Source of the DNA: Elusimicrobiota bacterium
GTDB lineage: Bacteria > Elusimicrobiota > Endomicrobiia > Endomicrobiales > JAPLKN01
DNA length: 61,276 bases
Assembly: GCA_026388075.1 (NCBI GenBank)
Contig: JAPLKN010000145.1
Location: 1 to 61,276, forward strand
Reading direction: 5' to 3'
Below the pieces are notes generated by a model. That model worked only from the letters and a program-made list of their open reading frames with translations, made no database searches and was not told where the DNA came from. Position 1 is the first letter of the stretch. Each line of letters begins with the position of its first letter. A program made the position numbers and the translations under genes. Of the stretch, positions 17,770 to 61,276 are shown piece after piece.

Positions 17770-17862
17770 CCCGCAACCAGTTACCGGTAAAAACAAAATC
17801 AAAAATATTTAATCGCCTTTGCTGGTCGCCGGTCACAGGTGGCTGGTAACGGCTTTTTAAAA

Positions 17863-43600: not shown

Positions 43601-46600
43601 CCGGGAACGAACGGGTTGATATTTGATTCAATTAATATTTCTGCTACAAAACAGCAGCTCGTTGATAAATTATATCGCAAATTACACAGAACAAAGAGAA
43701 TACAAGATATTAAAAGTATGATCATAAACAGTAAATGGATGTTCGCTTATTCAAGTTCAAGCAGGGAGATTTATTACAAGATTTTATCTCTGGCTAAATC
43801 TGTTAAAGACGAACAAATTTCTATATTTATGCCATTAGATTATCAAAAGGATAAAGAGATTATCTCCTTTATAAAAAATAGTGAAGACATGTTGTATTTT
43901 AGTAAGAATATAAAAGATAGCGCCAAAGTTAAAGACATAAGCAAAATAAAATTAATCATAATAAATACAAAAACTTTCGATCTGCATCGTAAGATTATTC
44001 TGGCATTATTGGGAAATAGCGATTTCCCGGTATTTGTATCCGGCAACGTAAGCCTTTCCGAGGCTATTAAGCGCAAAATTCCTTTTATTTACATGAAAAC
44101 AAATTTCCATACGAAAGTTTCTGCTGAAGCTATGAAATATTCTTTTTCGGATATATTGCCTATTGATAAAAGCAAAGTATTAAAAAATTCTTTTGAGATT
44201 ATAGACAACTATCTTGAAGGCAATACAAATACTATACCTGCGGAATTGTTTGTAAGAAAAGACTGGCAGATTTATCTAAAGGAATGGGAAGAACTTGTTT
44301 ATGAAAGGATGAATTTTTTCAAAACTATTCAAGGCATTGTGAATGGTAAAAAGTTAATTGAAATAGACGGATATTTTGAAGACCCGTCATTTTTTAAATT
44401 TGTTGAGTCGGTTAAGGAAGTAAGAGTAGTTTACAGATATAGGTATCTAACAGAATCTTGCGGAATAGCAATATATGATGCGCTTCATCAATTAAAAGAA
44501 GAAGGTTATGACCTTAAAGATGCCTTAAGTTGTATTGACAATCCGGAGCTTAGCAAATATGCGATAGAAATATTGAGCGGGGCAGAAATAGAAAATGAGG
44601 TTGGCGACATTTTGATCAAAATGCTCAGACAATATGTGCATAAATGGAAAGTTGACAGAAAAATGCTGCCGGTTATTAACTCTGTTATTAGTATATTTTC
44701 ATTAGCTACACCTTTTATGCGATCAGATGCTGAGATAATAAAATTGTTAAGGCATCCCAATAATGAAATTAAAAAAGAAGCTTTTAAATACTTAAAAAGT
44801 ATTGGGGATGATGATAGTTTAAAAATAATTCAATCATTGTCAGAAAAGAAAGTATCAAATGAGAAAGCAAGAATAGCAAAAGAAGTTAATGATTATTTTG
44901 AAGGAATATTAAGCGAGTATGATAAGGAACAAATATATTCCATAGATGATTTTATTGAAAATGTTAATCCTCAGCTTCTCATCAGATGGGAGCCTAATCA
45001 AACCAAAAAAGTTACGGAAATATTAGAAAACGAATTAGAAACTATAAATAATAGTGATAAGATAAATAAAATTATCAATTTCAAAGTAAGCAGCGGTTCT
45101 CTTAGAAAGAATAATTGGATGCTTGGTTCCGGTATTGATGAAATTGAAATTGAGTATTTAGGAGAAAAAAATGTTTTGGAAATGAAAATTAAAAGTATGT
45201 TAAATAGATTTTGTGTTTTAATTAAGGAAGAAGGATGGGTATGGAGCAATATTAGGTGGATTCAGAAAAATGCTGATGAGGCGGTTCTTAACGAATTTAG
45301 GAATGATAGAAAAGTTCTGACAATTCAAAAGAAGGAAGATAAAGATAGTAAATGGCTTACCAAGAAAATATTTTATAGAAACAAACTTCTTGATGAATGG
45401 AACAGCTTTGGGAAATCTGTAAAAGAGCTGGTCAAAAAACTTCACATAGCTATGGCGCTAAAAAACTTTAATAACAAACAAATAAAAGTTAATCTAAACC
45501 GGAAGGAAATAGTTTTATTACATTATTTGGAAAGAAAGGGTTTAATATCAATTATCAAAAACAGGATTTTTATTAAATGGTTTTCAAACAGAAGAGGAAC
45601 GAATATTTTATTTAATTATCTAATATTTAATGCCGAAAAGATAAATAAAACCATTCCTGAAGCGCCTATTGATAAAGAAGTTCTTGAGCAGGAAGGAAAA
45701 ATTAACCCTGATAAACCGCAGCTTACCCGGGAAGATGTTTATATTAAATATGGTCAAAAGCACGGCCTAAATCCGGGCTGGTACCTAAGCAGGCCAACTT
45801 TTCCCGAAGAAGAAAAAGTCTGGATTCAGCACAGGCGCGCGGCCGAGCGGATGGCGGGGTGGTATGAATTGCCGCAATTTTTTACCGATCCGATTGGATT
45901 TTTGTTTAGCCACTATATAACCACCAAGTACGAGCGCGCTTGGAACTGGGTATCGTTTAGTATGGTAATTGTTGCCTGGCTTGCAAGTGTAATGGTGCCG
46001 TGGCTTGGGGTGGCAGTATTTTTAGGAAATGTCATTGTTAGAAGTATCGGAAGCTACATAAAATTAAGAAGATACGAAGCTGAGAAGCTGGGAAAATGGG
46101 AAGCTGAGCAAGAAAAAACTAAGTACGAAATAAGAAAAGCAGGCGTAAAAGAGATAACCCAAAAATCAATAATAATAGGGGCAATTGTCGGGACAGTTGC
46201 AGGAACAATTTCTGCATTAGTTATAGGCACTATAACATCCTTCCTCATACCATTCACATTAGTATTCATTGCAGTAGCCGCATACAACTTCATTAAACTT
46301 CACCAGAAATACAATAAAGAAAAAGGCACAGGCACAAAATGGGAAGCGCCGCTGACGGAAGAACAGTGCAAAACACTGGCGGAAAAGGATTATGAACAAA
46401 ATGAGAATTTTAAGGACATGGTTAGACAAGGAAAAGTTGACCGGGGGGCGGTCATCCTTTTTCTGGCGATCAAACACTATATCCGGGGCAAAAAGGTTAC
46501 GGCGAAAGACGGCAGAGAATATACTCTGGTAGCCAAGATGGAACATCCGTGGTCGATTGAAATCTATCTCAAAAACAATGAAGAAACCGAATCCAATAAG

Positions 46601-47170
46601 CGATTCCTATGTCTGGATTCTTTGGAGGATGGCTCATACAGCTTTGGCATTGACTTAAGTGAAGTAACTTTTGGTGAAGCTGGCCCAGAAGACCTCACAG
46701 AGAAGGGCCTTGGGAAAAAGGTATTTATGCTGGCTACCGAACTTTTTCCTGTTGGATCAACATTCAACATCGAGATAAGGAACGAGGATACCTTAACTAT
46801 TCTGGAGAACATGATAGCGTCCGGGAATATCTCCAGCATGGCTGAGCTCGAAAGAGTATTCACCGAAGAAACAGTTATGGGCCACATCCTCGAGGTTGCC
46901 GGTTTTAGAAATTTCAAGTTTATGTATGACCCAATTGGCTATTTCTCCGGGAAAAGCGGTAGTTTCAAGGAAGTGGAAGAGAACAATATTGCCGAATTTG
47001 GGCAGTGGATTGAGGAATTCCATGATTTCCAATTGGTTGCAAAGAAAACTGAGGCGAAAAGGGATTATTTAAAGCAGGTTTTTGAGGACAATAAACAGAA
47101 AGAACCAGATAAAACAAAGGTATTAACAAATAATTCTAACGCAGATTTGGATGGCGAAAAACAAGAGTAA
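19610..47170 (+). CDS. Giant mosaic protein C (9186 aa, 27.6 kb). It has N-terminal signal/TM segments, at least 10 enzyme-like or repeat domains, five junction/adaptor cassettes and internal and C-terminal TM clusters.
   Basis: Single uninterrupted ORF starting at the first ATG after an in-frame TAA (19577-19579). MKRNLIFILVFIFLLNNFSA is a hydrophobic N-terminus. No convincing SD. It ends at TAA 47168-47170, and the same frame stays open into ORF D. Confidence 0.9.
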   Translation: MKRNLIFILVFIFLLNNFSAIDILFFNNSTIVTNIIKAQSPILSVFSMSVLPMKVFEALADKLNISKKQGNNQPENQTEEKRNSSSDYAIISSEKVFIKVLKTKIPDNLSVIFNGLNEMYRAFTICARGSPPGKQVNFFILLLLLYLILLSRSNLPNSSVRMIFVKNMSRLLKKSRVFYLWAGSILKFNFKKAVAVFTAACFMFSVVGADVLRASTVISERKKEIYEIENSLDSTIIPASLGRVTSEKCFESDRVVINIQDLHCNSEVQRNISGILKNLDDKYGLHRIFVEGASGEVDTSWLCGLTDANFKNKAIEILVNQGKLTGSEYYSVISNKPKLLYGLEKEGPYNENLKRLNKIIDCQPMYEKIIKEIQKDLDEMKTNYLNPQQKRLENIVSKYRQGKIDSGKFYKLINKYIDKLNKNKETYDIGSISLSQYENIKLYLDALEIERGINYGAVSQELQKFVQNIKQKLSYSTYREIAEKTNNFTKLDETYTCLSYLSENKTFSVENGSHNLREFFKYLKTSKKINPIRLIREENNLISEIRTGFSQNITEYEISFLAGTFCSFEDYLRNKLSYEEYKKFKANFEEFRLLWQKYTGGNQLKELEKDFELLNAFYNLNAERNEYFIEAIFKKKVKVEVKVKEQQDNKNGIIQETLPSRPLGSSQKESDSKKVSSQLKKAKEITVVITGGFHSEGLEELLSDNKISHITITPCVIKEIKTCEKIYKEIAKEQFKNISAQAIALKLLSQMSPETKFSELVNVKIIKAIEEGQKAFEKLMKGNENNIEMILENMQVIWNANKTIADKEGKIKSVKNLGIKDSGYHFAIDFGTGETEFAYVPGAVNPVQLVIESAQLSNKAVSGKADIQKILEQMKAGLQDREIKSKNGKIFRLKINGDDKIAIFISLIDDKGQESSIVSHVSYTEDNEMNISLVLDEVVFDHEANDLTGQWLGGQILEFCSNYVPAGTKFSLEVVNTETIQKLIRGYKTKSFADIAEMTSFFKEQTPIGKLISGKSGLGGFEFEQNFKIIKDKSEISSFIDMLEKGLQKKEGFILHAIKLASENEVSDKEEKIAQFRVALRQRFFSMVWIKDRDASGKKLSYYEKEKMLKDFEDGLTEKYKNIVNNPSSYDKCFQEMVGIITAFYKLHSRGFFYLDIDKPKDIADFLENRIIKAEPLFSISRINKSAMQFNGLAGSGATAAVLKIILKGHEGQKLVVKTMFNYKDDKNQKYFKRERKILKKFQNFQWAVRLYDDLTEEFCVEGGILKGIVMEDISEGIDPEQFPAGDFTNEYFKELIDALLAIINSGHKITEDFQNVILNGHPKIYDFGAYGEIRSENQRNENIEEANKIVRFLTRKNITEYLQSTRNITLTKEEISIIEELFINEPQKITIKEFCDRYISQKEAMQKKPQALGENISSDDQETSGKKGGEIRPKDLKRAVAVTYGIGAGIGIANLLIQLALGQVFGVAGPKYLVPFDGIDEEDVRPSVPKFNYYTPQEFMGVRRRYPGGRWEIRINPAVYKVLISLPVFMQRVVLSYTGIVGHEAYHLNFKNSEKIKYNRHQEIRAYGLAQVLPASSGVVVSLFLIYCCGMGIIGSIIAGVLTSFIVVNLISEIYGNHVIKREQFERLFTLPGNTGFVLQNQWNDAAEADEKRKELKDLFGKNSKKIEKYLFERPTPENAVSHVQKEYQAMFALIFELLPKNCAFYTYDDFEDNSFGSISSSDNSIFLHRSISANQAALWKYMLEFLAEKNLLKITLKNQVLIIESNGKTIGEIKISDEAITYTKHQDFADSKEDSLPYLIHLMCREVFGKYSEDLNLFESKYKETLENCSLNEDLILNPSLSPYPELYKETKEIFEDLCSAAGIEGATLWLLDNEDISVFAVPGMRIAAISVGTFKKIKHLTKDAIAFALAHEIRHISQKELLNISQTKHRISRKAAKETDADYFALCLMNKAKYNVLEATKLFESLKDEEELDDTLKMILELRDEHGSVEKRIKHLRDLINDTNWGNTSEIKYFSKSAADSLDEKTRLNKIIKLVSGVRTFKELSDILLLISTDSGLQEYVNTILASGIMNVFKSFEQDLHLEKRISEHDFKFKFTLTDGFTLLLILFGDMKWQSIFKNNKYYALLKTIFASKGFTRINIDFQTFMSEYEHTYGKIISDITINILLNNICQTWLYIFGENKQAMEMARKYIKKRIARSMSRIEVQPKQLIKFPLASTAGAISPTIFHSDDAYKWYLDMCMEEMLKNKHWNIAYVTELIKQLDNLSETVKDDYYTLYGSLLKFYDRIVKVLIESGAYSDEELAKLLFDHSYLLYAGHESNPYVNSRAFKVIFDLYGKNGRYKERTEELLKNIWDKYCSFSILWIMAEKYYEEFKKGNYDYLHFLKLDGNELLYIYKTLAKKHRTRQERYEILVILTDYAQKKNIEFIYDSYMTMREFRNALPETDGELMACIEELIARAKNTYPGIEKALSSVDQIGKKAKEILIWMLMFGCYDFTRLNLSIEEKEVLLEVLRTIYDKKTESKNGSADLEVPEKKLQELILGEKDGYYRESNEQRLLREQTDVGLDLFLRKIGYSDNDQVLTNKVQFLKTVADIRMGVSRSAKFKGKVSNENNSTGGSVADYKITEAYENYFRKLFDLPFYIERPDASQNRKQYFKDDVFDFIFKTEMSFEDCLGYVKRYLPPSVIRNLVLLALLLKEAEKIYPDENVFNNFLTSTRVLNDKAIKEKVGMVLPLLVPDSTLLANNTVLIEHLVEKERRGKKSGLGGADSFSEEIKNKRERGTASVAGVRERCKVFIKTIFIILTNFVRYVILKVDRKLFPKRYLKQVRNIFDQRNVSAKFLGEKRQNIIANEITPSLFKEELLQKRGLDKFIIKAFAEEHNISPDGIANLSPKMLAQFINTYIVEENLATKEIIDLSDIKNRSERNRAQELLDKIKVKVEKPVSSNTQNPRRYIDNIDQKIKYDQYIEQVREFNVIVLKSMYPKSIHISYQKDVVDTVVGNYFMENILHAMYQIMSPKSIQRLATAYFERKRREKGIQKIDALYFDYNHPNKFAQPDAVLPDVFFGEEIMGNIQSGVEFLNKISFVCSKFVNSQPARDKYLEIIFEQELANIKVKSGEARDKDGILQVCGMLAAVREQSKMFYNSYFSDRYLSEALSIDVGLSELSAALENEQFTLMKEIGIIEQYFPEKSYIRDDILKSLWESVHDFEEAKKLQAMMYGDRRNMLGDVKTERKVFYEEKFKILFEELPRMDKNDFMLWIIGIKEKPVFMRQWEEMLGISFDQLKNIYQMPQGSARYKFVGESARNLFIEEMFLGSQGILKDSKLFEYFMSQIVEYILNKTDVGKTVSKSVLRKISKAVIKETDNDKKLEIVKALSLNLSSVFQEGQGNEFDVIVKLMESLGIIGIKIGQMIGFSNEIDVSPELKNKFKKLGSSAVPLTKQVAFESLINLGMQDKIKSIDESLGSASIKIVFGATLNDGRKVALKILRPKVAHDLKKDLKMFKKVIARLRKQGVKIPNGFEDRASSNIEEDADFENEIKNSALLESQLKEISQEHTFKLSCSGAQVQFALPVLYEGSNNKILFCEKISGRDLKDEDGLISDKILSREELSELKGVIFDFLMIQMFEKGLYLGDPHGGNFRIVREDGVIKVYLTDVGAMEKLEKDAEKYRRFLIGLGCMKRNIKTAGEFIDEALFFTRAGHLIENKGEKELLKIMLQKMPKDVAPYDTTDIDSAVKKFEIDFIKDVISKKVHRTSKKENSVKPDAKEFLAEDEEAEEALDEPELAQGLKSLGEKPEVVVAKAAANGVEVVLGGVVIKVAQWIADKIVALGIKNLEVPKDFSDYDGWLKLIQDNAVTLSGVIQGAHENMYEDEKHLVTGEKLKLYKTKIEKIKQLLEENGYPGFDVLVSENPNLIHPEGDAYSLATFNTDKKKIMVHTAFLDRAPPEMIEELVKHETGEDNALKGNDPGFEKYISDLSVESQQPIETYRNQGIYHKYLKSINEQETLLNYSEEIADAERKKRISKELGNFKSSLSRVKNPDGSYTSKPSADISPLELIKKLIIQARENGHDAVEIYTDDYFGFMKFDQPAAEFKQAHIKMFDEMIGKAQEIKKLASELGIEINVHAPAYHFIENDLSRYLEPAKDFEIFEKTIQFAKALEAKTIIIHLTNTDEASLNGFIKFVKEAAKSEIKVGIENTNYNKDNVKVKGDAEFYPKTKPHNYEEFTKALQFINSKLRIRERQYLGVTLDLNKAYNSQIGDKAQTDVIEYLTRLKEKNINLFNIHLTQLDINNPKRKTPIYKNGLILMVSFLNEVMKYYGASVYINQEINEGILSPLKAEKKLISLGKKPRVAVARAAAKSKGISVILFDMHGTLYDAEIFNKAIKDSLIFAYAKKYNATFDEAEFIVNNKRKELTQDGKIALSDSALALDLKVSWAEKDAAEDEHLPYEKIKENRKLQEVLMKLKKQGYILALATNAGPSRVNKIMDKIGIRKYFDFIYSRNDLNATKPDPKFFEKVLSLLGEKPQQIIYVGDEPKKDIVPSENLGIWTLKANGPEEINCISKRLEEISKAKKKGRQQPLPISIFDYSGDIEDVGPILEKKQEGVKYEEFKIRIKAYKATLEISYSVPCVLLTSETNILARFFANVIKKYTEGQNIDSVEIITKNKSLSRMTKREIKNINGKGQKVNGKGVSIVLFDVDGTLYKSEKFAKAIKDSLVLTYMNKQNELRKDHPELGKTLTFEDAKAIVDNKRKELSQDGKVTVSDNKVSLELGISWAEKEAAELENLPFNAIEQNKKLQKILKKLKKQGYILAIATNSSTNRAREVLKRIGIDKDYFDFIFTKENLEALKPDKKFFKKAIDLLIEEPDEIIYVGDEPKKDIEPSENLGMWTLRADGPEGIYGISEKLKEIKKAKKHGRQKPLPISIFEYSGNIENVSQLIRHEQGILRYEDVNVIIDTDKGLIQFSFSVPIYLLSWEINIIARFIAAHIMEKAEGVNINLVKLVSGQKKLNKTVENFIRTHASIDDNIKRSSFDINKILGLGDRLEPVTLGEDIVRIVARAAAFDGGFAKWLQDKFRLTAQFSTEESWLETLSGKSIEVYLALLELFKKGAVTEIPEKIKIIIKEFIDEAAKWLNVDPSMIDIVTTTNPDLISRDAWGLSALQKNANGRITIYVHQLFWEELINKSQKVKKRLVEKLLKHEPGEYLALIEPEKGNKIHQLIYDGFTNYLIEKLNTQKTLVKDNRYRNSKNFHEYLKYIEEKSKKKKPLTEAEELLNGQGELFSFAEEIKEKYSSILAEKEYNDLCSKGMVDKKFVYKHKLNTELLEKIVRNEKVDDFVRIYAFVILSCPRYFVGSNGKTFINQNFSYFGPRPVPQEKLVELAKLLKPAAISFISKANDSNENWRDRFEEIMFRNDPRILELSAYSTAVFLSYISDMFSFDKRFEDNFHSLLRAVTDTKKEAIRGDSCACFEDGIIKLDLYKMKQKNKEPVLIFQSIAHEIGEAIWDVVYNYPDNDTNQRIAEYFADLNIFIFSHNCGLDKKEDFIDKLFKGIKYFMDYDTFLKDKNIAKNVHPQSRVFIRMHLDKAGGAGKIEWLKLAKAVLKTATDEANKSKEFYKIAILSLADYLGVNKRTAEEYISGISKIIYLKDAELKASEIIPSPDIVEKLIYESPDRPKDTSLKTAFLGENIFWVFAQAARLGNRFVSETINNYLLCLMDIPESINEWFEALENKSVKDTPLMRSLFKSIFSAGAVEKVGEGLEAYTESLKNEYSLRLKTSKLTVKTSNNPALIGIKGWALATLGKHTDGTFTPLENTADSPQQLVTQSQDGNTNLSSSFVRKQGSLTGFTLYIHQAFWDALKGKTLAEQEELLRILFDQEIIKHLALEGEDPEFDIFIKDNILSKLNLLEIPQDISRYRTDENFGEYSRIKYPKHEKLQIFGKKISQTYFQGLYLKMAHILYKLYSKNEIFPQDIKEIFKEIKEELNSYGFKNINQLNLLKETINWAGFITKGLYGLDKLLREKKYSQKKVEKIAKRLFAGFLGYYKNESSEPSEIKGRQIKNIRKYNIPLNEIFKLMDSGKDLSGLKTLKQNLTASNKNKPQAKALSEELPLLIANAVLGCFLPDFVPRICEAIGIEADSLYASKPMDLASKIADNSALLADALLALFKRGAINKTFTKEEEQYINEYKTEAAFKLFGIRDGSKIKLVTSNNPALIQGKAWAHSTIEVDEVNGNATIYVHQAFWEALKNKAPPAQLNQLVQKVLLKMLFGHELDEDSALKGEDPDFEQFIEPILKEKNLPITEENKSKYRTIKNYHEFLRSKKPEKAVILDFGKKAAKEYYDGLYLKMLNIVCRLFIKDKELSSVDIMSAVKEIENTVLQYGFYNVGMLEHFGERIGWSEALLKTFLDGYVELAMHSKADTYFQKSAQESVQKFFTQLLKYCAIKSAEMFEVRKGEMWNVYRNRFALNKITKITEKGDELLILFKRIERFLKNDERQNRCETLQINKDFVFELARVLMPDSLRELSDVKDSDHCDLISYLLSGLLTELPLSEEKYELVCLDLKNRTATGVLHNNRLLVLDYAAERVFELSLNDYTEEKEPEGKKSVIKRYMISKVPIEDNFVQMNYKEIKIYPFSTAKSIYLVELGALCLKKAEITHEKVYYDQAGKYFDEAIETDPNYPNAWENKGLLFEKLDKLDEAAGCYKKVIELDPPNNRTTRDRLTNEIKKAEEKQEIELEVFEGIMKLQGYDKEVSDLKLRAQKLKIRVSDDIYIATAIGNRELIDDLLKREKDFEADKQAYKSKKGQELAVAYLKSSGEILSVRRFKPENEEGILNLIHTETKEDWSGLGLNSSLLYILFLMFCRDDNFKKAVTTFLTDSDSYKSEKEQPIPGTGYDFYYRLKKYAGKEAVNLRDLYKEGRFSGRYAEIYFDKLNLDSIKEHLAKHLKELTHEKTRQIQFQILEKRLRADMWVGNVASDFGKRITEFIEKLNQDLNILNKSSDKESLNKAKEIEEIKEKSESLNKKAEHYSEPEEFILFSNDERIQEAMRNAAAIYMPKDASSYTEKYLINIRNDKGKIVSAILYRLDEETDKKAKQTHLCRISVSYDWDNLGNNKLNKSTISDAFIKVPTIELGKIFFEILESIAGEGSAKVVKENKLEKNIEINLNKLNLVNLDDFSIIDKLIEIVNELDADAMLIDHIDKINKIIYLEVKTNKEYTILKIPYAESVANKKLTAKGTYQAYGELYPDKIIRDQNFENWWENPANAKAKRDCEINFAPVKEYKESTKDPIGFIVSHVDLSVKDNLGEDNLRILALQGLTFKTYKKFAARTPEKTIELLSKTFNNDKRAINTFLKTFYQRARVVDQMMRFEEIGENIGKPGQVREYGLFRAAINGVISLIIRLMTRLKKNVVLAEEGIEQTRIKAGNILSHWWNNFINKAPLLQNEIKAKRIKTIVFNKAELIKLNIRIPEIEEYKKDREKALWDRYEIEKIKWEKGETPIPLAPGIGNFLKVLQEKNKPCIITSGEELDKLKTKISDMKLKKYFKNENIHGFPETKAEVLKNIAEPGTKLIMFGDAPSNMKAAKDAGAVAVGIAHNEKGAARLKEAGADIIVLGGFIELTEILEGKKPLENNGNVIVINKIYDLNADKYVFDWDGTISDAFWFWPEVEGEQIAGYICSKDENNKAIWEKAKLWAAEFGRTSFWQSPTPLTLDNKYEILITGLKELQSNVLSLKIKDFFKKYLENFNIKNIKYLSFFSHFQIFRIVCSISRLLKYGKIDVGDASDFILLLHNLMMIAKQDMAKIVNYIIRNLSRINEQVGLKPYMISLLDNFGKSKSVLYKLEDLPLKFFLSLRKQKIVLKDIKSINVILTAKLEGRGDIPNAFDLASGITEMFPDKDITLTFFEENTYKLFAKDFQMKIPNLRIAHGLDTDKAKDCDLIIFITIPWTYIHGINPLETNLKGRKATFYIPCFDWWHMSNGAFIDKRDNQITLHMFLKSGFSPGTNGLIFDSINISATKQQLVDKLYRKLHRTKRIQDIKSMIINSKWMFAYSSSSREIYYKILSLAKSVKDEQISIFMPLDYQKDKEIISFIKNSEDMLYFSKNIKDSAKVKDISKIKLIIINTKTFDLHRKIILALLGNSDFPVFVSGNVSLSEAIKRKIPFIYMKTNFHTKVSAEAMKYSFSDILPIDKSKVLKNSFEIIDNYLEGNTNTIPAELFVRKDWQIYLKEWEELVYERMNFFKTIQGIVNGKKLIEIDGYFEDPSFFKFVESVKEVRVVYRYRYLTESCGIAIYDALHQLKEEGYDLKDALSCIDNPELSKYAIEILSGAEIENEVGDILIKMLRQYVHKWKVDRKMLPVINSVISIFSLATPFMRSDAEIIKLLRHPNNEIKKEAFKYLKSIGDDDSLKIIQSLSEKKVSNEKARIAKEVNDYFEGILSEYDKEQIYSIDDFIENVNPQLLIRWEPNQTKKVTEILENELETINNSDKINKIINFKVSSGSLRKNNWMLGSGIDEIEIEYLGEKNVLEMKIKSMLNRFCVLIKEEGWVWSNIRWIQKNADEAVLNEFRNDRKVLTIQKKEDKDSKWLTKKIFYRNKLLDEWNSFGKSVKELVKKLHIAMALKNFNNKQIKVNLNRKEIVLLHYLERKGLISIIKNRIFIKWFSNRRGTNILFNYLIFNAEKINKTIPEAPIDKEVLEQEGKINPDKPQLTREDVYIKYGQKHGLNPGWYLSRPTFPEEEKVWIQHRRAAERMAGWYELPQFFTDPIGFLFSHYITTKYERAWNWVSFSMVIVAWLASVMVPWLGVAVFLGNVIVRSIGSYIKLRRYEAEKLGKWEAEQEKTKYEIRKAGVKEITQKSIIIGAIVGTVAGTISALVIGTITSFLIPFTLVFIAVAAYNFIKLHQKYNKEKGTGTKWEAPLTEEQCKTLAEKDYEQNENFKDMVRQGKVDRGAVILFLAIKHYIRGKKVTAKDGREYTLVAKMEHPWSIEIYLKNNEETESNKRFLCLDSLEDGSYSFGIDLSEVTFGEAGPEDLTEKGLGKKVFMLATELFPVGSTFNIEIRNEDTLTILENMIASGNISSMAELERVFTEETVMGHILEVAGFRNFKFMYDPIGYFSGKSGSFKEVEENNIAEFGQWIEEFHDFQLVAKKTEAKRDYLKQVFEDNKQKEPDKTKVLTNNSNADLDGEKQE
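20370..21780 (+). other. Possible ChaN/Tiki/TraB-erythromycin-esterase-superfamily-like domain
   Basis: VINIQDLHCNSEVQRNISGILKNL...IFVEG at the N-terminal end and VVITGGFHSEGL at the C-terminal end resemble the GExH...H..Q / G..H motif pair of that superfamily. This is a weak, motif-only call. Confidence 0.2.
23180..23700 (+). other. Protein-kinase-like fold (atypical)
   Basis: G-loop-like GSGATAAV, LVVKTM (VAIK-like Lys), RERKIL (alpha-C Glu), hinge IVMEDI, ITEDFQNVIL in place of the catalytic loop, and IYDFGAYG (DFG). Confidence 0.35.
23843..24480 (+). other. Membrane-embedded HExxH module (ALGENI junction, TM, RYPGGRWEIRINPAVYKVL, HEAYH, 2-3 TM helices)
   Basis: HEAYH is encoded at 24239-24253. 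Flanking hydrophobic runs are AVAVTYGIGAGIGIANLLIQLALGQVFG and LPASSGVVVSLFLIYCCGMGIIGSIIAGVLTSFIVVNLI. Same architecture as 49421-50050 in ORF D. Confidence 0.5.
25200..25530 (+). other. M48-family-like Zn metallopeptidase domain
   Basis: NEDISVFAVPGMRIAAISVGTFKKIKHLTKDAIAFALAHEIRHISQKE ... ETDADYFAL matches the M48 pattern (NAFA...I.v..GLl..l..dEl.aVlaHElgH ... E.eAD). HEIRH is encoded at 25349-25363. Confidence 0.6.
29790..30610 (+). other. ABC1/UbiB-family atypical kinase domain
   Basis: The diagnostic motifs occur in the expected order: GIKIGQMIG, LGSASIKIVFGATLNDGRKVALKILRP, EEDADFENEIKNS, ILFCEKISG, LYLGDPHGGNF (30509-30529) and LTDVGAM. Confidence 0.7.
30980..31640 (+). repeat. Junction + adaptor cassette head, copy C1 (SLGEKPEVVVAKAAA ... 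ENPNLIHPEGDAYSLATF...IMVHTAF...HETGEDNALKGNDPGFEKYI)
   Basis: The junction is encoded at 30980-31024 and HETGE at 31473-31487. By eye about 85% nt identity to ORF D copy 48380-48770. Confidence 0.8.
31770..32600 (+). other. Xylose-isomerase-like TIM barrel (AP-endonuclease-2 / sugar phosphate isomerase-epimerase family)-like domain
   Basis: LGIEINVHAPAYHF ... AKALEAKTIIIHLTN ... EIKVGIENTNYN ... NIHLTQLD matches the beta-strand-end H/E pattern of that family. Confidence 0.45.
32639..32683 (+). repeat. Junction motif only (SLGKKPRVAVARAAA), directly preceding HAD cassette 1
   Basis: tccctagggaaaaagccaagggtagctgttgcccgggcggcggca. It shares GTTGCCCGGGCGGC with copies at 48074, 53835 and 55620. 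Confidence 0.8.
32690..33660 (+). other. HAD-IA hydrolase domain 1 plus a trailing unknown domain of about 110 aa. Motif I is the variant DMHGT.
   Basis: ILFDMHGTLYD (DMHGT at 32714-32728), LALATNAG, ATKPDPKFF and YVGDEPKKDI cover HAD motifs I-IV. The domain is followed by GRQQPLPISIFDYSGDIEDV... Confidence 0.7.
33670..34700 (+). other. HAD-IA hydrolase domain 2 plus the same trailing domain. Motif I is the canonical DVDGT.
   Basis: VLFDVDGTLYK (DVDGT at 33698-33712, 984 nt after copy 1), LAIATNSS, ALKPDKKFF, YVGDEPKKDI, then GRQKPLPISIFEYSGNIENV... Confidence 0.7.
34751..35330 (+). repeat. Junction + adaptor cassette head, copy C2 (TLGEDIVRIVARAAA ... TNPDLISRDAWGLSAL...ITIYVHQLFW...HEPGEYLAL)
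   Basis: The junction is at 34751-34795 and HEPGE at 35204-35218. Confidence 0.7.
35500..36300 (+). other. Degenerate zincin-like domain paralogous to ORF E 54500-55400 (HEIGE here, HEISH there)
   Basis: VRIYAFVILSCPRYF ... LIFQSIAHEIGEAIWDVVYNYP aligns by eye with LRIYAFSLLCSNYQ ... LLELCHEISHSAQECVYGIANEYG. Confidence 0.3.
36656..37330 (+). repeat. Junction + adaptor cassette head, copy C3 (FLGENIFWVFAQAAR ... SNNPALIGIKGWALATL...LYIHQAFWDAL...EIIKHLALEGEDPEF)
   Basis: The junction is at 36656-36700. The His-Glu motif is degenerate here (QEIIKH). Confidence 0.65.
37915..38520 (+). repeat. Junction (degenerate) + adaptor cassette head, copy C4 (LSEELPLLIANAVLG ... SNNPALIQGKAWAHSTI...IYVHQAFWEAL...GHELDEDSALKGEDPDF)
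   Basis: HELDE is at 38414-38428. This is a tandem paralogue of the 36656 cassette, and the downstream helical part is also alignable (YRTDENFGEY.../YRTIKNYHEF..., GLYLKMAHILYKLY/GLYLKMLNIVCRLF). Confidence 0.6.
39520..39750 (+). other. TPR repeats (2-3)
   Basis: YYDQAGKYFDEAIETDPNYPNAWENKGLLFEKLDKLDEAAGCYKKVIELDPPN is a classical TPR consensus. Confidence 0.7.
41950..42480 (+). other. HAD-like domain with a degenerate motif I. A separate DWDGT motif follows at 42554-42568.
   Basis: IVFNKAE stands in place of DxDGT. Also present: CIITSGEE, K...IMFGDAPSNMKAAKDAGAVAVGIA and ADIIVLGG. Downstream, YVFDWDGTISD looks like the start of a further HAD-type fold. Confidence 0.45.
43190..44130 (+). 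other. EarP-like (GT-B, arginine rhamnosyltransferase family)-like glycosyltransferase domain
   Basis: The motif order matches my recollection of EarP. LEGRGDIPNAFDLA corresponds to DNYGDIGVTWRLA (GDI at 43229-43237). FLKSGFSPGTNGLIFD corresponds to FFPGF...GGLL. WMFAYSS corresponds to SLFAYEN. FDLHRKIILALLGNSDFPVFVSGNVSLSEAIKRKIPFIY corresponds to YDRLLWCCDLNAVRGEDSFVRAQWAGRPLLWHIY. Confidence 0.4.
44530..44850 (+). other. HEAT-like repeats
   Basis: NPELSKYAIEILSG... and LLRHPNNEIKKEAFKYLKSIGDDDSLKII resemble PBS-lyase-type HEAT repeats. Confidence 0.3.
45940..46300 (+). other. C-terminal TM cluster of ORF C (about 4 helices) followed by a HQKYN...GTGTKWEAPL juxtamembrane motif
   Basis: WNWVSFSMVIVAWLASVMVPWLGVAVFLGNVIV and IIIGAIVGTVAGTISALVIGTITSFLIPFTLVFIAVAAYNFI. 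Confidence 0.6.
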
Positions 47171-47335
47171 AAGAAGAGCGAACAAATTGAGCCTGAAAAA
47201 ATAAAAAAGAGGACGTCCAAAAACAATCAAGCCGAAGTTCTGAAAAGGTTAAATAAAGGCATTAAATCCCACGGCGGAAAGCCGGCGGCAAAAGAGAACA
47301 GAAAACCCTATGTAGAGGACACGAACCAGAGAAAA

Positions 47336-56500: not shown

Positions 56501-59500
56501 GGACGAGTTGCTTGATCTTCTCTATGGAATAATTAAAATCAAAAAAGAGCTTGCTGATGCATATCTCTCAAAACATTATGGATTTGAAACAAACAAGGAA
56601 GATGAAGAGTTTGACGGGCAATATAAGGAAATGACTTATGAAGCATTCATTAGGTTAAATTCGGTCATGAAATTTGCAGAGAAGCGAAAGATTAACGGCG
56701 AAGGTTTGCGCAAACTCTACATTTGGTTTACTGATCATCTTTTCATTTTTTCCCACAGCTTGCATACGGCTTATCTCGTTTCAAAGAAAACAAAACAAAC
56801 AATGATCAAGAATATCATAGATTCAATAAAGGACACGGCAGAAGAAATTAAATCTGAAATATTGTCTTTTCAAAGATCAGGGATTGTTAGAAAAGATTTG
56901 GATTGTAATAAATTAACAAAAAATGATGTAGATAATATTTTCTCAGGAAACGCGGATTATTTGGAAGATGGTACTATACAGAAAGTGTTGAGGATTATGA
57001 TAGAAAATGGAATTGATATTTCATTTGATGGTAAGACGAAAGAAAACATCAAGTTGGAAGATAAATATGAAATTCCAGCGGAAGATGAACGGTTGAAAAA
57101 AATATTTGGATTGGAAGGGAAAGACAGTGCAGTTGAGATATGGAAAGATGAACAAGGAAATATCGTTTCTGACTGGTTTTCAAAAACAGAAAGAGACTAT
57201 TTACGGCAAATTGCTATTGAAATCGGACAGGAAAAATTAAAGCAGGTTGAATTATTTGACAAACCAATCGGTGAGAATAGAAAAGACATAGAGGAATTTC
57301 TCCGTAAAATTGACCAGAAGATTAACATATTCTCTTGGAACGATTTGATGGATGAAACTGTAAGTATGATAATTTTGGCAGTAGAGAAGGGAATTGCTAA
57401 GAATCTGCGAGATGCTATTGCCGAAATGCTCGGGTATAAGTTAATTAATAATTCAGTAGAGTATTTTAACAATGAAAAAATGAATAAATTCTTAAAAATT
57501 CATTATAAAGCATATTTTCGCCTGCTTGCATTCAAGAGTTTAATTAATAGTTGTCTTAATGTCTATGCTAAAGGATGTGGCGAGAAAATCGAGAAAAAGA
57601 TTAGTAATCTATTGTCTGGGGTCAAAATCGGGATCAAATATGAACTCGAAACTTCACAAGACGGAGCGGAGACTCGTTTATTTAATCGTTCATTTTCCTT
57701 TATTAGTGCAAATAATTTATTGCTCCTTCCCTATGAAATTTGGCATGAATCAATTCACTTACTATTAAATTTCCACAAAAAAGATTTTAAAAATGAATCT
57801 TTGACAACAGCTGGGAGTTATTTATTTTTTAAGATTCTTGCAGATCAGAATCCTGCTTTAAAAGATATTTTCAATTTAATGGCTTTAGTGGAACGTCAAG
57901 TTATGAAAGAAGGGGATGTTTATAAATTGATTAGCGAATATGCTAATCCGCGTCAAGCGTTTCTATACAGTGCTTTTGAAAAGTTTTTGTTCAATCAAGG
58001 ACTGCCAAAGGATATCCTATCACGGTTTAAAATGTTCAGGCACTTTGTTGAAGGTAAAAAGGATTTTTGGATTGACGACATTCTTGAGATTATCCAGAAA
58101 AAAGATACGTCAGATTTTTTAAAAGATGCCGTTCGTAGTTCTTCAAACATCAAAAGAATGTTTCAGCATACAAGACTGCAAGAAATATTTAAGATTATTG
58201 TTATGCCGGTTGCATTAATTGCTTTTTTAACGAAAAAATCAGAGATAGGGGCAAAACTTGGAAATTTATTTAGGGCGGCGAGAGTTCAAAAGACTGCTCT
58301 TCCTTCAGCCTTTTACTATTGTTTAAATTCAGAAAACTTAAATGATAATATGGCTAATAGATTGCTGGATCAAAATTCTAAAGGAGCAAACAATATAATT
58401 GTAACTGTTGCGGACCACGAAAAAATTATACAAGGCCTTAATCAAAGGGATGTTAGTTTGCCTAGGAAAATTTCAGTTGAAGGCAGACTGTGCAAAATAT
58501 GGATAAAGTCGGTTTGGAAGGATGATGCTTCTTCTATTGAAATAATTTATGTTGAGCCAAGAGCGGGAGCCGAGGTTGCCTTAAATAATGCTTCAGTTGA
58601 GGTTATAAGGGAACTTTACGGTGACGGAATTAGGGAGGGAGATCCTGCCATTAAAAGAACAATCAATGAAATGCACAAAGGAGAAACGGGTTTTAAACCT
58701 GCAATAATATTCAATGATACCGGCAAAAAGCCGTCATCTTTTGAGGATAGATGTGAAAAAAGAAGCATGGGGGCTGAATTTAAAACTTTAGAAGAAAGCA
58801 GAATAAAGGATTTTAAAGAATTCAAGGCGGCTGAAAATCAGAAGAATCACGAAAGATTTGTTAACGGCAGATATTTCATATTAAGTGCGTCAGTAAAGGG
58901 ACAGAATAAAAGTGAGATTTTAGAAGCTATTAATACTTTGGCAAGAATCGGCGCCGTAAATATAAGGCTAAGGGATCTTTCTTCAGATTTGTCGGAAAAA
59001 GACTTAGAAGATATAGTTAAATACTGCCACGATAGCGGTGTTGATATTCTTTCGGATCTCGATGTTTCTGATATTGATACAAAAGCTGATAAACTTGGCA
59101 GGGCTGGTTTCAACGGTTTCGAACTGGATCTGTCAAATTTTGAAGGAGATCCCGTGGAAGTTTTAGACAAAGCAATGAAGAATTTTAAATCCGCTTCTTC
59201 AATAATAACGATTAAATTAAAGAAAAAAGAAGATAGGGCATTGTTCAAAGGAATTGACGGAGTAAAATTTGTTAAATTTCAAGGGACAGCAATTGACGGT
59301 AAGTTGGACGCTGAAGAAGACGAATGCCTTTTTATTACTGATCCGGAAAAAGTGAAAGAATTCAAAGCCGGTATGGTAGAAATTCCTGTTGAATCTCTGG
59401 TCGGTGATACGGCCGGTTTTAAATTTTTGGTTTTTGCTATGGGTGTGGATTTCTATCAAAGATGCAAAGAAAAATTTGCAAAACTAAAAGCCGTATTTAA

Positions 59501-60227
59501 GACAACACCTGAAAAAGAATATGATTCTGCTTATATGTATGAAAAAGAAGATCTTCCCGATATAGAACTGTGGATAAAAATAAAAGAATTACTGGAACAG
59601 GAAAAGTATTCAAAAATTAAGGCTTATTTGACCGTCTTTAAAAAGGATTTAAACGAAACGGATATTGAAGAAGTAAAAATGTTTGCAAAGGATCTTGAAC
59701 AGGCAGGATGGGTTAAAGAAAGGAAATCTTATGCGAGGTTTGGAGAACTTTCAGAAAAAATTGCTGGATATGGGGCTACGGTTGAAAATATAGTATTGTT
59801 TATGGCGTTTATTAAAGCTGTTTTTGAGATGACACTTATCAAGGATGACCTTTTGAATAATACTAAAGGAAAATGGATGTTTTCTAATTTCAAACATTGG
59901 AAATTGTTTGGGCAGATACTTTTGAAAAGGGAATTTTTGGAATCTGAAGTGGTTTCAAAAATAGATAACAATTCGGAAGTTGTTAAAATAATTGACCAGA
60001 TAGATTCTGCTTTTTCAAAGGGATATACTGAGCAAAATCTATCTAAGTTGTTTGATGAAAGTGTTGTAAAATTAACAAAAATGACAGAAGATGGTGTGCC
60101 CGGAGCCATGAGCGGATTGATAAAAATCTTGAGGGTTTACTCTGATTCCAAGATACAAATAAAAATTGAAAAAATGCATGAAAATACGATTATAAATTCA
60201 GTGAAAGATATGCTAGGGGCCGCTTAA
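50514..60227 (+). CDS. Giant mosaic protein E (3237 aa). Order of modules: N-third paralogous to the ORF A C-half, two junction/adaptor cassettes, two HExxH motifs, then a C-terminal region of about 600 aa paralogous to the ORF B C-terminus.
   Basis: Uninterrupted 9.7-kb ORF. The tracked start is GTG 50514 without an SD. The frame is open for a further 48 codons upstream (from 50370). Confidence 0.85.
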   Translation: MLGWIGTEENLVNIARDILRAIKYGFKDIEIIDEEGGSIRGSPELFRKIKYLKETFGKEFISDKWADIMAMAGKDKKSEFYICEYLSKLGERCGAEFVKDNWQTILRLIETAEAEGVDPGSLLEYGLPALKEILTKENLMQIGEELIRYGVDAGDEKSFYYGLFKLRELITGDNYIRVFEGLSRINCSGSERKIKMKDVYEKFTEIFNGTITFDNYENILKDFIEFVFTLQGKVPEKCISGLLIALSPVIKEQGQQIVFEEINEIMSLCADSSPKILQAISDLSNLILKNYGKAVNTWDELIRPVVMTQAKKSSRILEEIKALYDLGALEKAEDLNGLRELIKINGIESYNILHEFLVPGIKDKIISKNLSKELVIVNKYVAEVQCPILDVYKKYLENPEKVAEIAKHLPEFMDKFHLANIGLDAGRRFDENLFRTEYVVYSISLEELMPGSIKHMISVLNSVIKDKGNPNVVIRYLDSKKAALNDPKAAEVVNRIKMSILGKLEIRSRKLVIGEKEKALAAIDLQLDDYKKIDFNKMPEKKRKNLETKYKNLPIQRDALAKELKTIRKIGDKKWKKEETERVIQKGLRCINLTIFNQEIIDKVSSIVELGSTGWLLENIDGIMEYTFETSENSIEDRMYALKNELVKRGFLGNLAKMLGIEETNIALGAYDKIDYENAPKLSQALKFLKENVSRQEYDMYKEYLKAMLEDRVWDFIENKSQKSRIGREIASQNEHERKMMIEEGINVDRWLGGRQVEGGRDSGLRFGDGQFMYYEKSSYEYDPIGDALRAINYLRDIMNRNAFIKDQEAGTKAIKVLEDMGLSVVCDSRNKIARFEVNKKMPQPPKDIVEVMCKIENLERLTSLTDEVGANTKLASDIKISEWVPELKQVLAVLKTNLSKEGKKYIQELEKQRKSFIIRPMKREPGRDLFIGDKTSCCLAMTSTTYPRAMFERLIDEGMNVIEVIDEATGKTMACSWLYISEDEYLTINNMEIHREYGKIAPLKETVGEEMIKYAQRFAKYIGAKKFIVGKPGHGEYIDYVAKKYKNKLVELPEMLGKIGGSIYDIEYYLDSATKTKQAYIIKDFEKKPLGIPVTEYMPEEVDKVVSLGKKPEIAVARAAIKGARELLQGITEAESLSVKLANWLIGKASGLSIEELSKMEESSFLDTLIQASISIQEALAKMFELGKVEEKNLTDEERAYGGTIQSRAEKQLNAKVNLVVSDNPDLIPPEGDAYSLSTIIENADGSYTIYVHRAFFKGLKNKKSQERKELLEQLAIHEIGEYEYLLANPGKNYQDYHKTLAGDKKQQKLLEYGKEAKLYENIVKNVNESESESAIDRGADIAAAYHEIYLQKTNIDILRHISEDPETRAELRIYAFSLLCSNYQIKSDFSQEDLVKISEELELIAVDEISKLLKSNREDWNRNFVKAENWLQNEKLRMYSMTVFLASEFGFIKRNKKEILKGEDMRELYYEIGNTEFSSRAEQTGIGIRIPQKTITDKNAEGVLLELCHEISHSAQECVYGIANEYGSLTLDALAETVSELSVLDFMQKFNINIEEWQSVLDWPYEKHFEEAVRDKYFMSSPHAAARAFLFMVLDLSKQYNIPVDWGIFKLKFISNLRNVVFSEICIKTMADYWKLENPGVYINRLREYSKNTVVEKEISYGYNEWVEPVLTQKVLIPPRFIMEELIKDIQENQKYEKNTSLGEKPEIAVARAAIKGAKEALLGIIEAESLSVKLANWIIGKSGLSVEELSKIEENSLLDTLIQLSISVQEALAKMFELGKVDEEKLTNKEKTYVEIIRSHAEKQLNAKVNLVVSDNPDLIPPEGDAYSLSTIVKEADGSYTIYVHRAFLKGLENKTSSEREELLEQLAVHEIGEYKFLQANPGKTYEDYHKTLAGNKKQQKLREFAKNIAVEVGSNGEKFKVFISKAVAVKERIRENGFINSIKDSNWTKELHSNSSYSAGWDMSNMKDDEIRLCFDILKRLGVDIYQYSRKKDELLDLLYGIIKIKKELADAYLSKHYGFETNKEDEEFDGQYKEMTYEAFIRLNSVMKFAEKRKINGEGLRKLYIWFTDHLFIFSHSLHTAYLVSKKTKQTMIKNIIDSIKDTAEEIKSEILSFQRSGIVRKDLDCNKLTKNDVDNIFSGNADYLEDGTIQKVLRIMIENGIDISFDGKTKENIKLEDKYEIPAEDERLKKIFGLEGKDSAVEIWKDEQGNIVSDWFSKTERDYLRQIAIEIGQEKLKQVELFDKPIGENRKDIEEFLRKIDQKINIFSWNDLMDETVSMIILAVEKGIAKNLRDAIAEMLGYKLINNSVEYFNNEKMNKFLKIHYKAYFRLLAFKSLINSCLNVYAKGCGEKIEKKISNLLSGVKIGIKYELETSQDGAETRLFNRSFSFISANNLLLLPYEIWHESIHLLLNFHKKDFKNESLTTAGSYLFFKILADQNPALKDIFNLMALVERQVMKEGDVYKLISEYANPRQAFLYSAFEKFLFNQGLPKDILSRFKMFRHFVEGKKDFWIDDILEIIQKKDTSDFLKDAVRSSSNIKRMFQHTRLQEIFKIIVMPVALIAFLTKKSEIGAKLGNLFRAARVQKTALPSAFYYCLNSENLNDNMANRLLDQNSKGANNIIVTVADHEKIIQGLNQRDVSLPRKISVEGRLCKIWIKSVWKDDASSIEIIYVEPRAGAEVALNNASVEVIRELYGDGIREGDPAIKRTINEMHKGETGFKPAIIFNDTGKKPSSFEDRCEKRSMGAEFKTLEESRIKDFKEFKAAENQKNHERFVNGRYFILSASVKGQNKSEILEAINTLARIGAVNIRLRDLSSDLSEKDLEDIVKYCHDSGVDILSDLDVSDIDTKADKLGRAGFNGFELDLSNFEGDPVEVLDKAMKNFKSASSIITIKLKKKEDRALFKGIDGVKFVKFQGTAIDGKLDAEEDECLFITDPEKVKEFKAGMVEIPVESLVGDTAGFKFLVFAMGVDFYQRCKEKFAKLKAVFKTTPEKEYDSAYMYEKEDLPDIELWIKIKELLEQEKYSKIKAYLTVFKKDLNETDIEEVKMFAKDLEQAGWVKERKSYARFGELSEKIAGYGATVENIVLFMAFIKAVFEMTLIKDDLLNNTKGKWMFSNFKHWKLFGQILLKREFLESEVVSKIDNNSEVVKIIDQIDSAFSKGYTEQNLSKLFDESVVKLTKMTEDGVPGAMSGLIKILRVYSDSKIQIKIEKMHENTIINSVKDMLGAA
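53835..54480 (+). repeat. Junction + adaptor cassette head, copy E1 (SLGKKPEIAVARAAI ... DNPDLIPPEGDAYSLSTI...YTIYVHRAFF...HEIGEYEYL)
   Basis: The junction is at 53835-53879 and HEIGE at 54348-54362. By eye about 80% nt identity to copy E2 over about 650 nt. Confidence 0.85.
54500..55400 (+). other. Zincin-like domain with HEISH
   Basis: GVLLELCHEISHSAQECVYG, with HEISH encoded at 55044-55058. Paralogous to ORF C 35500-36300. Confidence 0.35.
55620..56260 (+). repeat. Junction + adaptor cassette head, copy E2 (SLGEKPEIAVARAAI ... DNPDLIPPEGDAYSLSTI...YTIYVHRAFL...HEIGEYKFL)
   Basis: The junction is at 55620-55664 and HEIGE at 56130-56144. Confidence 0.85.
57600..57900 (+). other. Additional HExxH motif region (LLLPYEIWHESIHLLLNFH)
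   Basis: HESIH is encoded at 57744-57758. This is a motif-only call. Confidence 0.25.
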
Positions 60228-60248: not shown

Positions 60249-61276
60249 GTTGTTAATGCTCACTAATTAGGTAACTCTTTTGGTAGAATATAACCAAAGG
60301 AGGCTGTCCAATGAAATACCAAGACATAATAATAGTAAAGCGATGGATACCAATACTAAAAGAGTACGAACGAACAAAAGCAAAGATTGATCCGCGCCCC
60401 TTTAGATATGTTAAGGACCTGTGTTCAGCACATAATATTTCAAAGAAAGAACTAACGCGCTATTATCACAAATGGGTCAATGGCGGAAAACTGGATGAAT
60501 CATTGTTGCCCAAGAAGCGGGGTGCGCGCCCCGGTTCGCGAAGAACCCCAAAAGAGATAGAACGATCTATTGTAAAAGCATATAGGCACTTTGGTTCAAA
60601 CAGATACGAGCTTGTTCTTTTATTTAAACCATATTACTTAGACAAAACGCCCTCACCGGCAACTATGGACCGGATTAAAGCGCGTTATCCGCTTAACGAG
60701 CAGGATAAGAAGGTCATTAAGCGCTACGAACGTCAGTCCCCTGGAGAATTGGCTCATATAGACCTTAGTAAAGTTCCCCATGATATCCGTTGTTCTTTTA
60801 AAGTAAAAGAGCTTTATATTGCTGCTGTTAATGACGACTGTACGCGTTTGACCTATGCTGAAATTATTAAAGACAAAAAAGCATCAACCTTAACTTATTT
60901 CTTGGCACGGTCATTGTCATGGTTTAAACAAATATACAATTTCGAATTTGAATCTATTCTGTCAGATAACGGTGCAGAGTTCAAAGGTTCGCTTGCTAGA
61001 GAACATCCCTTTGAAACCTTTTGCAAGGAATTGGGTATAAAACATATTTGTACTAGGCCTTACAGACCGCAAACCAACGGCAAAATTGAGGCTTTCTGGC
61101 GTATCGTTCAAAAGGAGTTCTTTTACCCGAATTCTTTTGCTTCAGAACAAGATATTATCCTTAATCTTGGAAATTTCCTGTTCGAGTTTAACCATTTACG
61201 CAAACATGGCGGTTTGAATTATATAACACCATTTGATAAACTACAAAAAGTTACCGAATTATTGAGCTAGTACAAC
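60249..61276 (+). mobile_element. IS481-family insertion sequence; the right end is at or beyond the window edge
   Basis: Imperfect terminal inverted repeats: gttgttaatgctcactaattaggtaac (60249-60275) versus the reverse complement of 61250-61276 (gttgtactagctcaataattcggtaac), 21/27 matches. The right IR overlaps the transposase stop, as is usual for IS481. The true outer ends may extend a few nt further out. Confidence 0.75.
60311..61270 (+). CDS. IS481-family DDE transposase (rve integrase core)
   Basis: N-terminal HTH region. The DDE triad context is AHIDLSKV / ILSDNGAEF / RPQTNGKIEAFWR. GGAGG at 60299-60303 lies 7 nt before the ATG. Confidence 0.9.
   Translation: MKYQDIIIVKRWIPILKEYERTKAKIDPRPFRYVKDLCSAHNISKKELTRYYHKWVNGGKLDESLLPKKRGARPGSRRTPKEIERSIVKAYRHFGSNRYELVLLFKPYYLDKTPSPATMDRIKARYPLNEQDKKVIKRYERQSPGELAHIDLSKVPHDIRCSFKVKELYIAAVNDDCTRLTYAEIIKDKKASTLTYFLARSLSWFKQIYNFEFESILSDNGAEFKGSLAREHPFETFCKELGIKHICTRPYRPQTNGKIEAFWRIVQKEFFYPNSFASEQDIILNLGNFLFEFNHLRKHGGLNYITPFDKLQKVTELLS

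Follow-up and report, generated by a model that had tools for sequence, protein, structure and literature searches.

The contig examined here comes from an Elusimicrobiota metagenome-assembled genome (MAG) at NCBI (locus-tag prefix NT145). On it the giant open reading frame (ORF) C ends with a TAA codon, and the next gene, D, is annotated in the same frame from an ATG 258 nt beyond that stop. Are C and D two genes, or two parts of one gene interrupted by a stop codon? The window, i.e. the whole stretch analysed, is the complete contig of 61,276 bp, on which yidC, jag/khpB and an SLT-LysM gene are flanked by very large ORFs, all on the + strand. It is likely that C and D, and probably also the following ORF E, are segments of one giant multi-module membrane-protein unit with a point stop in a linker, and that D is mis-annotated from an internal methionine. 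The elements concerned are:

19610 to 47170, + strand: ORF C, 9186 codons, with an N-terminal signal-anchor; putative first segment of the giant unit.
47168 to 47170, + strand: in-frame TAA, one base change away from AAA, GAA or CAA, in a Lys/Glu-rich context (GEKQE-stop-KKSEQ).
47171 to 47428, + strand: start-less interval of 86 sense codons with no ATG, GTG or TTG; its codon usage is coding-like in this frame only.
47429 to 50401, + strand: annotated ORF D, 990 codons (NCBI MCX5782612.1, 990 amino acids (aa), deposited name 'MFS transporter').
50514 to 60227, + strand: ORF E, 3237 codons from GTG 50514 (NCBI MCX5782613); the unit's probable last segment.

Positions 19610, 47171 and 47429 belong to one frame (frame 1), and the TAA is the sole stop in this frame from 19580 to 50399 (30.8 kb). 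C, the stop and the upstream-extended D comprise 10,263 codons, of which 1076, all intact, belong to the extended D. A first-pass annotation of the sequence had reported the shared frame with its single TAA, the 86 sense codons devoid of ATG, GTG and TTG, and a fused length of 10,263 codons; it had also considered the stop-free run improbable by chance and the interval protein-coding. All of this is borne out. The probability of encountering no stop in 86 codons was 0.002-0.003 (local composition and shuffling), that of encountering no start-type codon in 86 sense codons was 0.017 (the window's own codon usage), and the other two frames of the interval are full of stops. A codon-usage log-likelihood score trained on the large ORFs of the window gave 0.23 per codon for the interval and 0.18 for the 56-codon linker preceding the repeat described below, to be compared, for windows of that size, with a 5th percentile of 0.16 in coding sequence and a maximum of 0.10 in off-frame and non-coding sequence. 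From 46900 to 47700, frame 1 outscored the other two throughout.

The annotated start of D lies inside a protein repeat:

47339 to 48043, + strand: helical repeat array of six tandem units of 34-45 aa, recognized by profile, DNA identity and model confidence (predicted local distance difference test, pLDDT, 85-95).
47429 to 47431, + strand: annotated D start, an internal methionine of repeat unit 1 (PYRML; PYEML in unit 5) inside modelled helix 84-99.

The array begins 90 nt before ATG 47429. Across the window, a profile of the repeat units matched these six tandem copies only. Unit 1 (47339-47452), which straddles the annotated ATG, scored 62.9 bits, within the range of the other units (58.6-69.8 bits), and its DNA is 71-75% identical to that of later units; the first-pass annotation had rightly seen a complete repeat copy running across the start of D. 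In a single-sequence AlphaFold model of 47171-48100, aa 1-48 of the extended D were disordered (pLDDT <50) and aa 51-294 formed a confident all-helical repeat (pLDDT 85-95), the modelled domain spanning 47321-48052. The annotated methionine is residue 87 of this model (pLDDT about 90), and starting there deletes two and a half helices. On the basis of codon usage, repeat unit 1 and the model, the segment 47171-47428 codes for protein and the real N-terminus of D lies elsewhere than at its annotated start.

The 34-45 aa helical repeat corresponds to no Pfam family and was not detected at the DNA level by Tandem Repeats Finder. A fold search of the PDB with the repeat domain gave no significant match, the best being TAL-effector repeats (E = 0.4). 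Its pattern (EFxD[IM]...D[IV]...P...L) is related to that of the small proteins P0008, P0010 and P0011, which carry EEEFASF..P.IVR.A....DPRAFLRK repeats. An antisense ORF of 156 codons (47422-47892, - strand) lies over the array and has no sign of being a gene; the coding signal is in the + frame.

How long could the stop have been in place? With 5% of substitutions taken as nonsense and indels ignored, the chance that an untranslated D (3228 nt) has escaped any stop exceeds 5% only as long as neutral divergence stays below about 2%. If D were made from ATG 47429, about 5% divergence would suffice to make a stop as likely as not (50%) in the 258-nt relic upstream. From these estimates we infer that the stop is evolutionarily young or not real. 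A rival account is an older split, in which D would be expressed from ATG 47429 and the 86 upstream codons would be an untranslated relic that happens to contain no stop yet. ATG 47429 is indeed the first canonical start, D is intact for 990 codons from there, and the absence of a Shine-Dalgarno (SD) sequence is not disqualifying in this gene family (see below). However, such a start would sacrifice part of a confidently modelled domain, unit 1 has decayed no more than the translated units, the codon usage of the supposed relic is still coding-like, and free drift to composition would leave 86 codons stop-free with the probability of only about 0.002-0.003 given above. We therefore consider an older split very unlikely.

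The stop itself occupies a distinctive place in the protein:

47072 to 47320, + strand: hydrophilic linker holding the stop, predicted disordered.
45600 to 49900, no strand: block of higher GC content (about 0.38-0.44; the 2.6 kb profiled upstream has 0.27-0.33), which crosses the TAA without a step.

Within the 10,263 aa of C plus D, residues 9155-9217 (nt 47072-47260) are the only stretch of at least 60 aa with no more than 20% hydrophobic residues (rank 0.3%). Stop-prone codons are not in excess in the linker (4.9%, versus 5.3% for C). In the proposed scheme, the unit would begin with the signal-anchor of C at 19610, and the TAA would be a single-base interruption, most simply of AAA, GAA or CAA, in a hydrophilic, disordered linker between two modules. 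ATG 47429 would then be the first methionine available to the gene caller and no true start.

The modules on either side of the linker point to the way in which this region may have arisen:

45710 to 46420, + strand: transmembrane module of C (aa 8701-8937); alignment with the orthologue P0002 (aa 6679-6924, 33% identity) extends no further than this module.
46469 to 46930, + strand: domain in the tail of C (aa 8954-9107), paralogous to C aa 874-1032.
48059 to 48826, + strand: 'HELGED' module of D, from paralogue comparison; copies occur also in E and inside P0002.
48809 to 49408, + strand: second D module, common to P0003, P0004, P0006 and P0007, with no Pfam match.
49421 to 50170, + strand: transmembrane module with HELLH (HExxH), with paralogous copies in C (aa 1412-1617), P0002, P0003 and P0009.

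P0002 is a 7085-aa protein encoded in an rpmH-rnpA-yidD-yidC-jag-SLT context in the Elusimicrobiota single amplified genome (SAG) AM-326-M04, whose contig L001 is the only syntenic relative. The order (rpmH-rnpA-yidD)-yidC-jag-SLT/LysM followed by a giant gene is shared between 13342-19281 of the window and 5029-9754 of L001, the SAG cluster having an additional GIY-YIG gene between yidC and jag. Because of this common context P0002 was taken as the positional orthologue of C, to which it is 39-44% identical over long blocks; the alignment starts at residue 1 and validates the start of C. ORF C comprises ABC1 kinase, two HAD, AP_endonuc_2 (AP-endonuclease-2-like), M48-like and TPR domains.

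ORF D consists of the helical repeat, two unnamed modules and the transmembrane HExxH module. No Pfam or NCBIfam match was obtained for D, and its deposited name 'MFS transporter' is unsupported by these databases. An exhaustive HMMER search revealed no full-length relative of D; instead, each D module was found inside other giant proteins. D is thus built solely from module types that are internal to giant proteins, including C. The HELGED module has a close counterpart inside C: identity is 76.5% at the DNA level (nt 48254-48759 against C nt 31193-31668) and 62% at the protein level (against C aa 3790-4019). P0002, C and E each hold two copies of this module. As the C tail and the D modules are paralogous to internal parts of C, the 3' end of C plus D appears to be built from duplicated internal modules, and as such modules carry no start codon, the simplest addition is an in-frame extension. 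The 3' part (C tail plus D) would accordingly have grown by in-frame duplication of C-internal modules, in which case the stop arose after this growth. A weak similarity between the C-terminal tails of D and P0002 (z = 2.7, P about 0.02; z = -1.0 for the C tail) was too weak to be used.

The HELGED module is about 230 aa long, has the motifs IQ.AHE.LYEDE.Y ... PPEGD.YSLATF ... HE..EDNALKG and belongs to no Pfam family. Its further copies lie at C aa 3790-4021 and 6098-6332 and at E aa 1106-1349 and 1700-1897. From its motifs it could be a novel metal-binding or hydrolase-like module. In the second D module (48809-49408), a candidate nucleotidyltransferase-like GS...DxD motif was recognized by eye only.

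The limits of the unit are indicated by its two ends. C alone among the giant ORFs of the window carries a signal-anchor at its N-terminus; B, D and E begin in polar or ordinary sequence, and no signal peptide was found in D. At the other end, the C-terminal domains of B (12829-13338) and E (59715-60224) are homologous (24.5% identity, aligned to the last residue) and occur nowhere else in the window. B ends in NILSAA and E in DMLGAA, which share L[SG]AA, an ending that A, C and D do not have. In other organisms P0003 ends in LLSAAA and P0009 in FAGAA; P0002 and P0007 end differently. The distribution of these ends is suggestive of two units, A plus B and C plus D plus E, but the endings of P0002 and P0007 do not conform. 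The L[SG]AA domain recalls Ala-Ala degrons and may act in these giant proteins as a C-terminal sorting signal or tag.

Breaks resembling the one between C and D were found at other positions:

7987 to 7989, + strand: second in-frame TAA, between ORF A, which runs off the left edge, and ORF B; 10 sense codons follow before ATG 8020 of B.
50370 to 50513, + strand: upstream extension of E, 48 open, coding-like codons in the frame of E before GTG 50514, without ATG, GTG or TTG.

At the A-B junction, frame 0 contains this single stop from 1 to 13338, and the stop lies within the 5% most hydrophilic windows of A plus B. B (NCBI MCX5782604) has no signal peptide and begins in polar low-complexity sequence. 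The E extension overlaps the end of D by about 30 nt (its last 10 codons), and the frame-2 coding signal begins right at the TGA of D (50399). Joining D and E would need a +1 frame change within 50370-50401, where no obvious slippery site is present. A further case was seen on L005, an unrelated metagenome contig (ENA ERZ27247989 k141_4294370). There, P0003 (4741 aa) is in frame with a preceding ORF of at least 1327 codons; at 3984-4080 the two are separated by a single TGA (GGC TGA C), followed by 31 strongly coding-like codons before the first ATG; the remaining genes on L005 look normally separated. The same-frame neighbour of P0009 was considered as another split gene and dismissed as a coincidence, since it has its own signal peptide.

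It is conceivable from these cases, if rather improbable, that giant proteins are deliberately encoded as chains of ORFs in this Elusimicrobiota lineage, with one signal-anchor in the first and one L[SG]AA domain in the last segment. The breaks (TAA between A and B, TAA between C and D, +1 between D and E, TGA in L005) would lie in hydrophilic linkers, with downstream segments lacking a canonical start, and restart independent of a start codon or low-level recoding would yield both separate pieces and a fusion of more than 13,000 aa. It is the recurrence of linker-placed breaks without restart codons that keeps this idea alive.

If D were a gene of its own, it would need a start. Anti-SD pairing before ATG 47429 amounted to -2.1 kcal/mol, equal to the mean of -2.05 kcal/mol at random in-frame positions in C, which served as background. 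The interval contains the near-cognate codons ATT 47186, ATA 47201, CTG 47240 and ATT 47261 as well as ATA at 47348, 47375, 47390 and 47399. For the first four the pairing energies were -2.2, -1.9, +0.1 and -3.4 kcal/mol, respectively, and 27-75% of the background positions pair at least as strongly; the sequence AAGAAGAG before ATT 47186 accounts only for the background-level -2.2 kcal/mol. For comparison, jag has -10.8 and the integrase gene at the contig end -11.6 kcal/mol. The homology-validated ATG of C, however, also lacks an SD site (-3.0 kcal/mol). The absence of an SD sequence before 47429, which the first-pass annotation had stated correctly, is for this reason a weak argument. Neither a terminator nor an above-chance promoter match was found at the junction.

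These data concern a stable two-cistron design, in which C ends naturally and D starts at ATT 47186, ATA 47201, CTG 47240 or ATT 47261, either by re-initiation after termination at the TAA or by de novo initiation; the hydrophilic stretch would then represent two disordered tails. Such a design agrees with the location of the stop in a unique long hydrophilic stretch, as expected of termini, and with P0002, which stops about as far beyond the transmembrane module as C does and is not followed by a D. ATT 47186 is just 15 nt past the stop, E and the post-TGA ORF of L005 also seem to be without a canonical start, which hints at a lineage habit, and the validated start of C makes SD-less initiation possible for these giant genes. 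Against this, no candidate codon has SD pairing above background, and starts other than AUG, GUG and UUG are very rare and weak in bacteria, AUU in infC being the textbook case. The frame shared with C would be a coincidence (1 in 3), D contains only internal-type modules and lacks the terminal domain of B and E, and the GC block and the frame-1 codon signal run through the stop. Overall, we regard two stable cistrons as unlikely. An infC-type AUU or CUG start with an SD site was not found, the pairing of the candidates being at background (with the caveat of the SD-less ATG of C), and for termination-reinitiation at a canonical codon the nearest in-frame ATG, GTG or TTG is 258 nt downstream.

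Could the ribosome instead pass the stop? In programmed readthrough most ribosomes would stop and produce C, a fraction would decode the TAA and yield the 10,263-aa C-D fusion, and the A-B TAA would behave alike. A single stop in a shared frame with intact, start-less coding sequence downstream is what readthrough would look like, and in linkers an inserted residue would be harmless. Moreover, both in-frame TAAs precede similar purine-rich sequence (TAA AAGAAGAG and TAA AAGGAAGAG). These purines, however, correspond to the Lys/Glu codons AAG, GAA and GAG that are abundant in these proteins, and an A likewise follows the ordinary terminal TAA of E. Of the three stop codons UAA leaks least, and it is read by both release factors. 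No RNA structure was found after the stop (minimum free energy z = 0.33 for 47140-47340), Rfam gave zero matches in 46000-51000, and no tRNA, including suppressor tRNAs, is present within the window. TAA is the commonest ordinary stop here: it ends six of nine ORFs, among them jag, whose 219 aa match the length of its orthologue, and occurs only once in the 10,263 codons of C plus D. Finally, no single mechanism covers all junctions, as D-E needs a frame change and L005 uses TGA. We thus give programmed readthrough very little credence, and a readthrough-stimulating structure was rejected. Reassignment of TAA in an alternative genetic code was rejected because of the six ORFs and the orthologous length of jag, and recoding to selenocysteine or pyrrolysine because the codon is neither UGA nor UAG.

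Relatives or second assemblies of the locus were searched for in protein, genome and metagenome collections. A word-indexed protein search with the extended D returned only the deposited D itself, and equivalent searches with the last 1500 aa of C and with the transmembrane-module alignment gave zero matches. Zero matches were likewise obtained with an exact DNA pattern carrying NNN at the stop in metagenome contigs and with protein-guided scans of metagenome and genome collections; an alignment-guided genome scan recovered only the already known SAG contig. Look-ups of the exact products of D, E and jag revealed no independent assembly, and the contigs of the distant matches P0004, P0006 and P0007 were too short or had an unrelated context. 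In the collections searched, no homologue spans the L005, A-B or C-D junctions. The sole syntenic orthologue, P0002, is without D; modules of the D type lie in the interior of other giant ORFs. Upstream of the yidC-jag-SLT cluster, the giant ORF of L001 in SAG AM-326-M04 shows no detectable homology to A or B.

Within the reading of C and D as one interrupted unit, two cases are to be distinguished. In the first, the TAA would be a mistake of assembly or consensus calling, or else an allele not fixed among strains, and the organism would produce the fusion protein; we hold this possibility tentatively. The intactness of the 1076 start-less codons of D speaks for such an artefact or transient allele, as do the published precedents in Omnitrophota and in S. 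aureus ebh discussed below. In the second, the fission would be real, and D would either be translated at a low level, by restart at ATG 47429 or a near-cognate codon, or remain unmade; we consider this quite possible though short of probable. The two carry roughly equal weight.

Several observations weigh against an interrupted unit. Beyond the last conserved transmembrane module P0002 continues for 161 aa and C for 249 aa, and no D-like ORF follows P0002; the stop of C could therefore be near an ancestral gene end. A random nonsense mutation or base error would rarely fall in the most hydrophilic 0.3% of the protein, and as stop-prone codons are not in excess there, the site gives the impression of having been selected or of marking a boundary, so that a tolerated or functional break is favoured over a random error. 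Three or four junctions (A-B, C-D, D-E and L005) exceed what random consensus substitution errors in an Illumina assembly could plausibly produce. Lastly, no orthologous locus with a fused C-D ORF was found in the collections searched.

The first-pass annotation had offered four explanations for the junction. The evidence favours a recent split and, alongside it, that part of the first explanation which invoked a polymorphism or sequencing error; the readthrough part of the same explanation fails on the UAA codon and on the missing structure and Rfam match. A non-canonical start at ATT 47186 or CTG 47240 received no positive support, given SD pairing at background, and termination-reinitiation coupling is unsupported for canonical codons, none of which lies within 258 nt. 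The same pattern at A-B, the start-less extension of E, the most hydrophilic site of the stop and the origin of D from duplicates of C-internal modules had escaped notice. Directly after E, at 60311-61270, the contig ends with an rve-family integrase/transposase gene preceded by a strong SD site, which may explain why the assembly stops there.

The deposited gene models are wrong but correctable: C plus D, perhaps with E, are better treated as a single locus, 10,263 codons long or, with E, about 13,500, which would rank among the larger bacterial genes. If the breaks are real and recurrent, they would show how very large multi-module genes fragment at linkers and would raise the question of how start-less segments are translated. 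If they are assembly faults, they are a further warning that uncurated MAGs systematically under-call giant genes.

Four known systems may be compared with this locus. The A1 protein of phage Q-beta results from programmed stop-codon readthrough, and there, as here, an in-frame ORF continues past a single stop without a start codon of its own. To our knowledge, the known bacterial and phage readthrough cases use leaky UGA or UAG codons and are conserved; the codon here is UAA and has no stimulatory element. The AUU start of infC exemplifies non-AUG initiation and recalls ATT 47186, a codon soon after the stop of C from which D would include its full repeat domain, yet here SD pairing does not exceed background and there is no autoregulatory logic. 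Another parallel is ebh of Staphylococcus aureus, which is split into ebhA and ebhB by a frameshift in strains Mu50 and N315 and is intact in other strains (PMC3868527). It likewise concerns a gene of about 30 kb for a membrane-anchored repeat/module protein, in which one point lesion leads in some strains to two adjacent ORFs, the downstream one being annotated from the first available start. The proteins are unrelated, the ebh lesion is a frameshift with known intact alleles, and the present one is an in-frame TAA in one assembly. In Omnitrophota, two adjacent giant ORFs of an Illumina-only assembly became one gene of 74,983 aa once a local error was fixed, in a dataset that also includes Elusimicrobia (West-Roberts et al., bioRxiv 10.1101/2023.11.21.568195). 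Domain content differs, and the C-D break consists of one clean stop codon, not of a visible misassembly; what the two cases have in common is an uncurated metagenome assembly of an uncultivated bacterium with two giant ORFs side by side on one contig.

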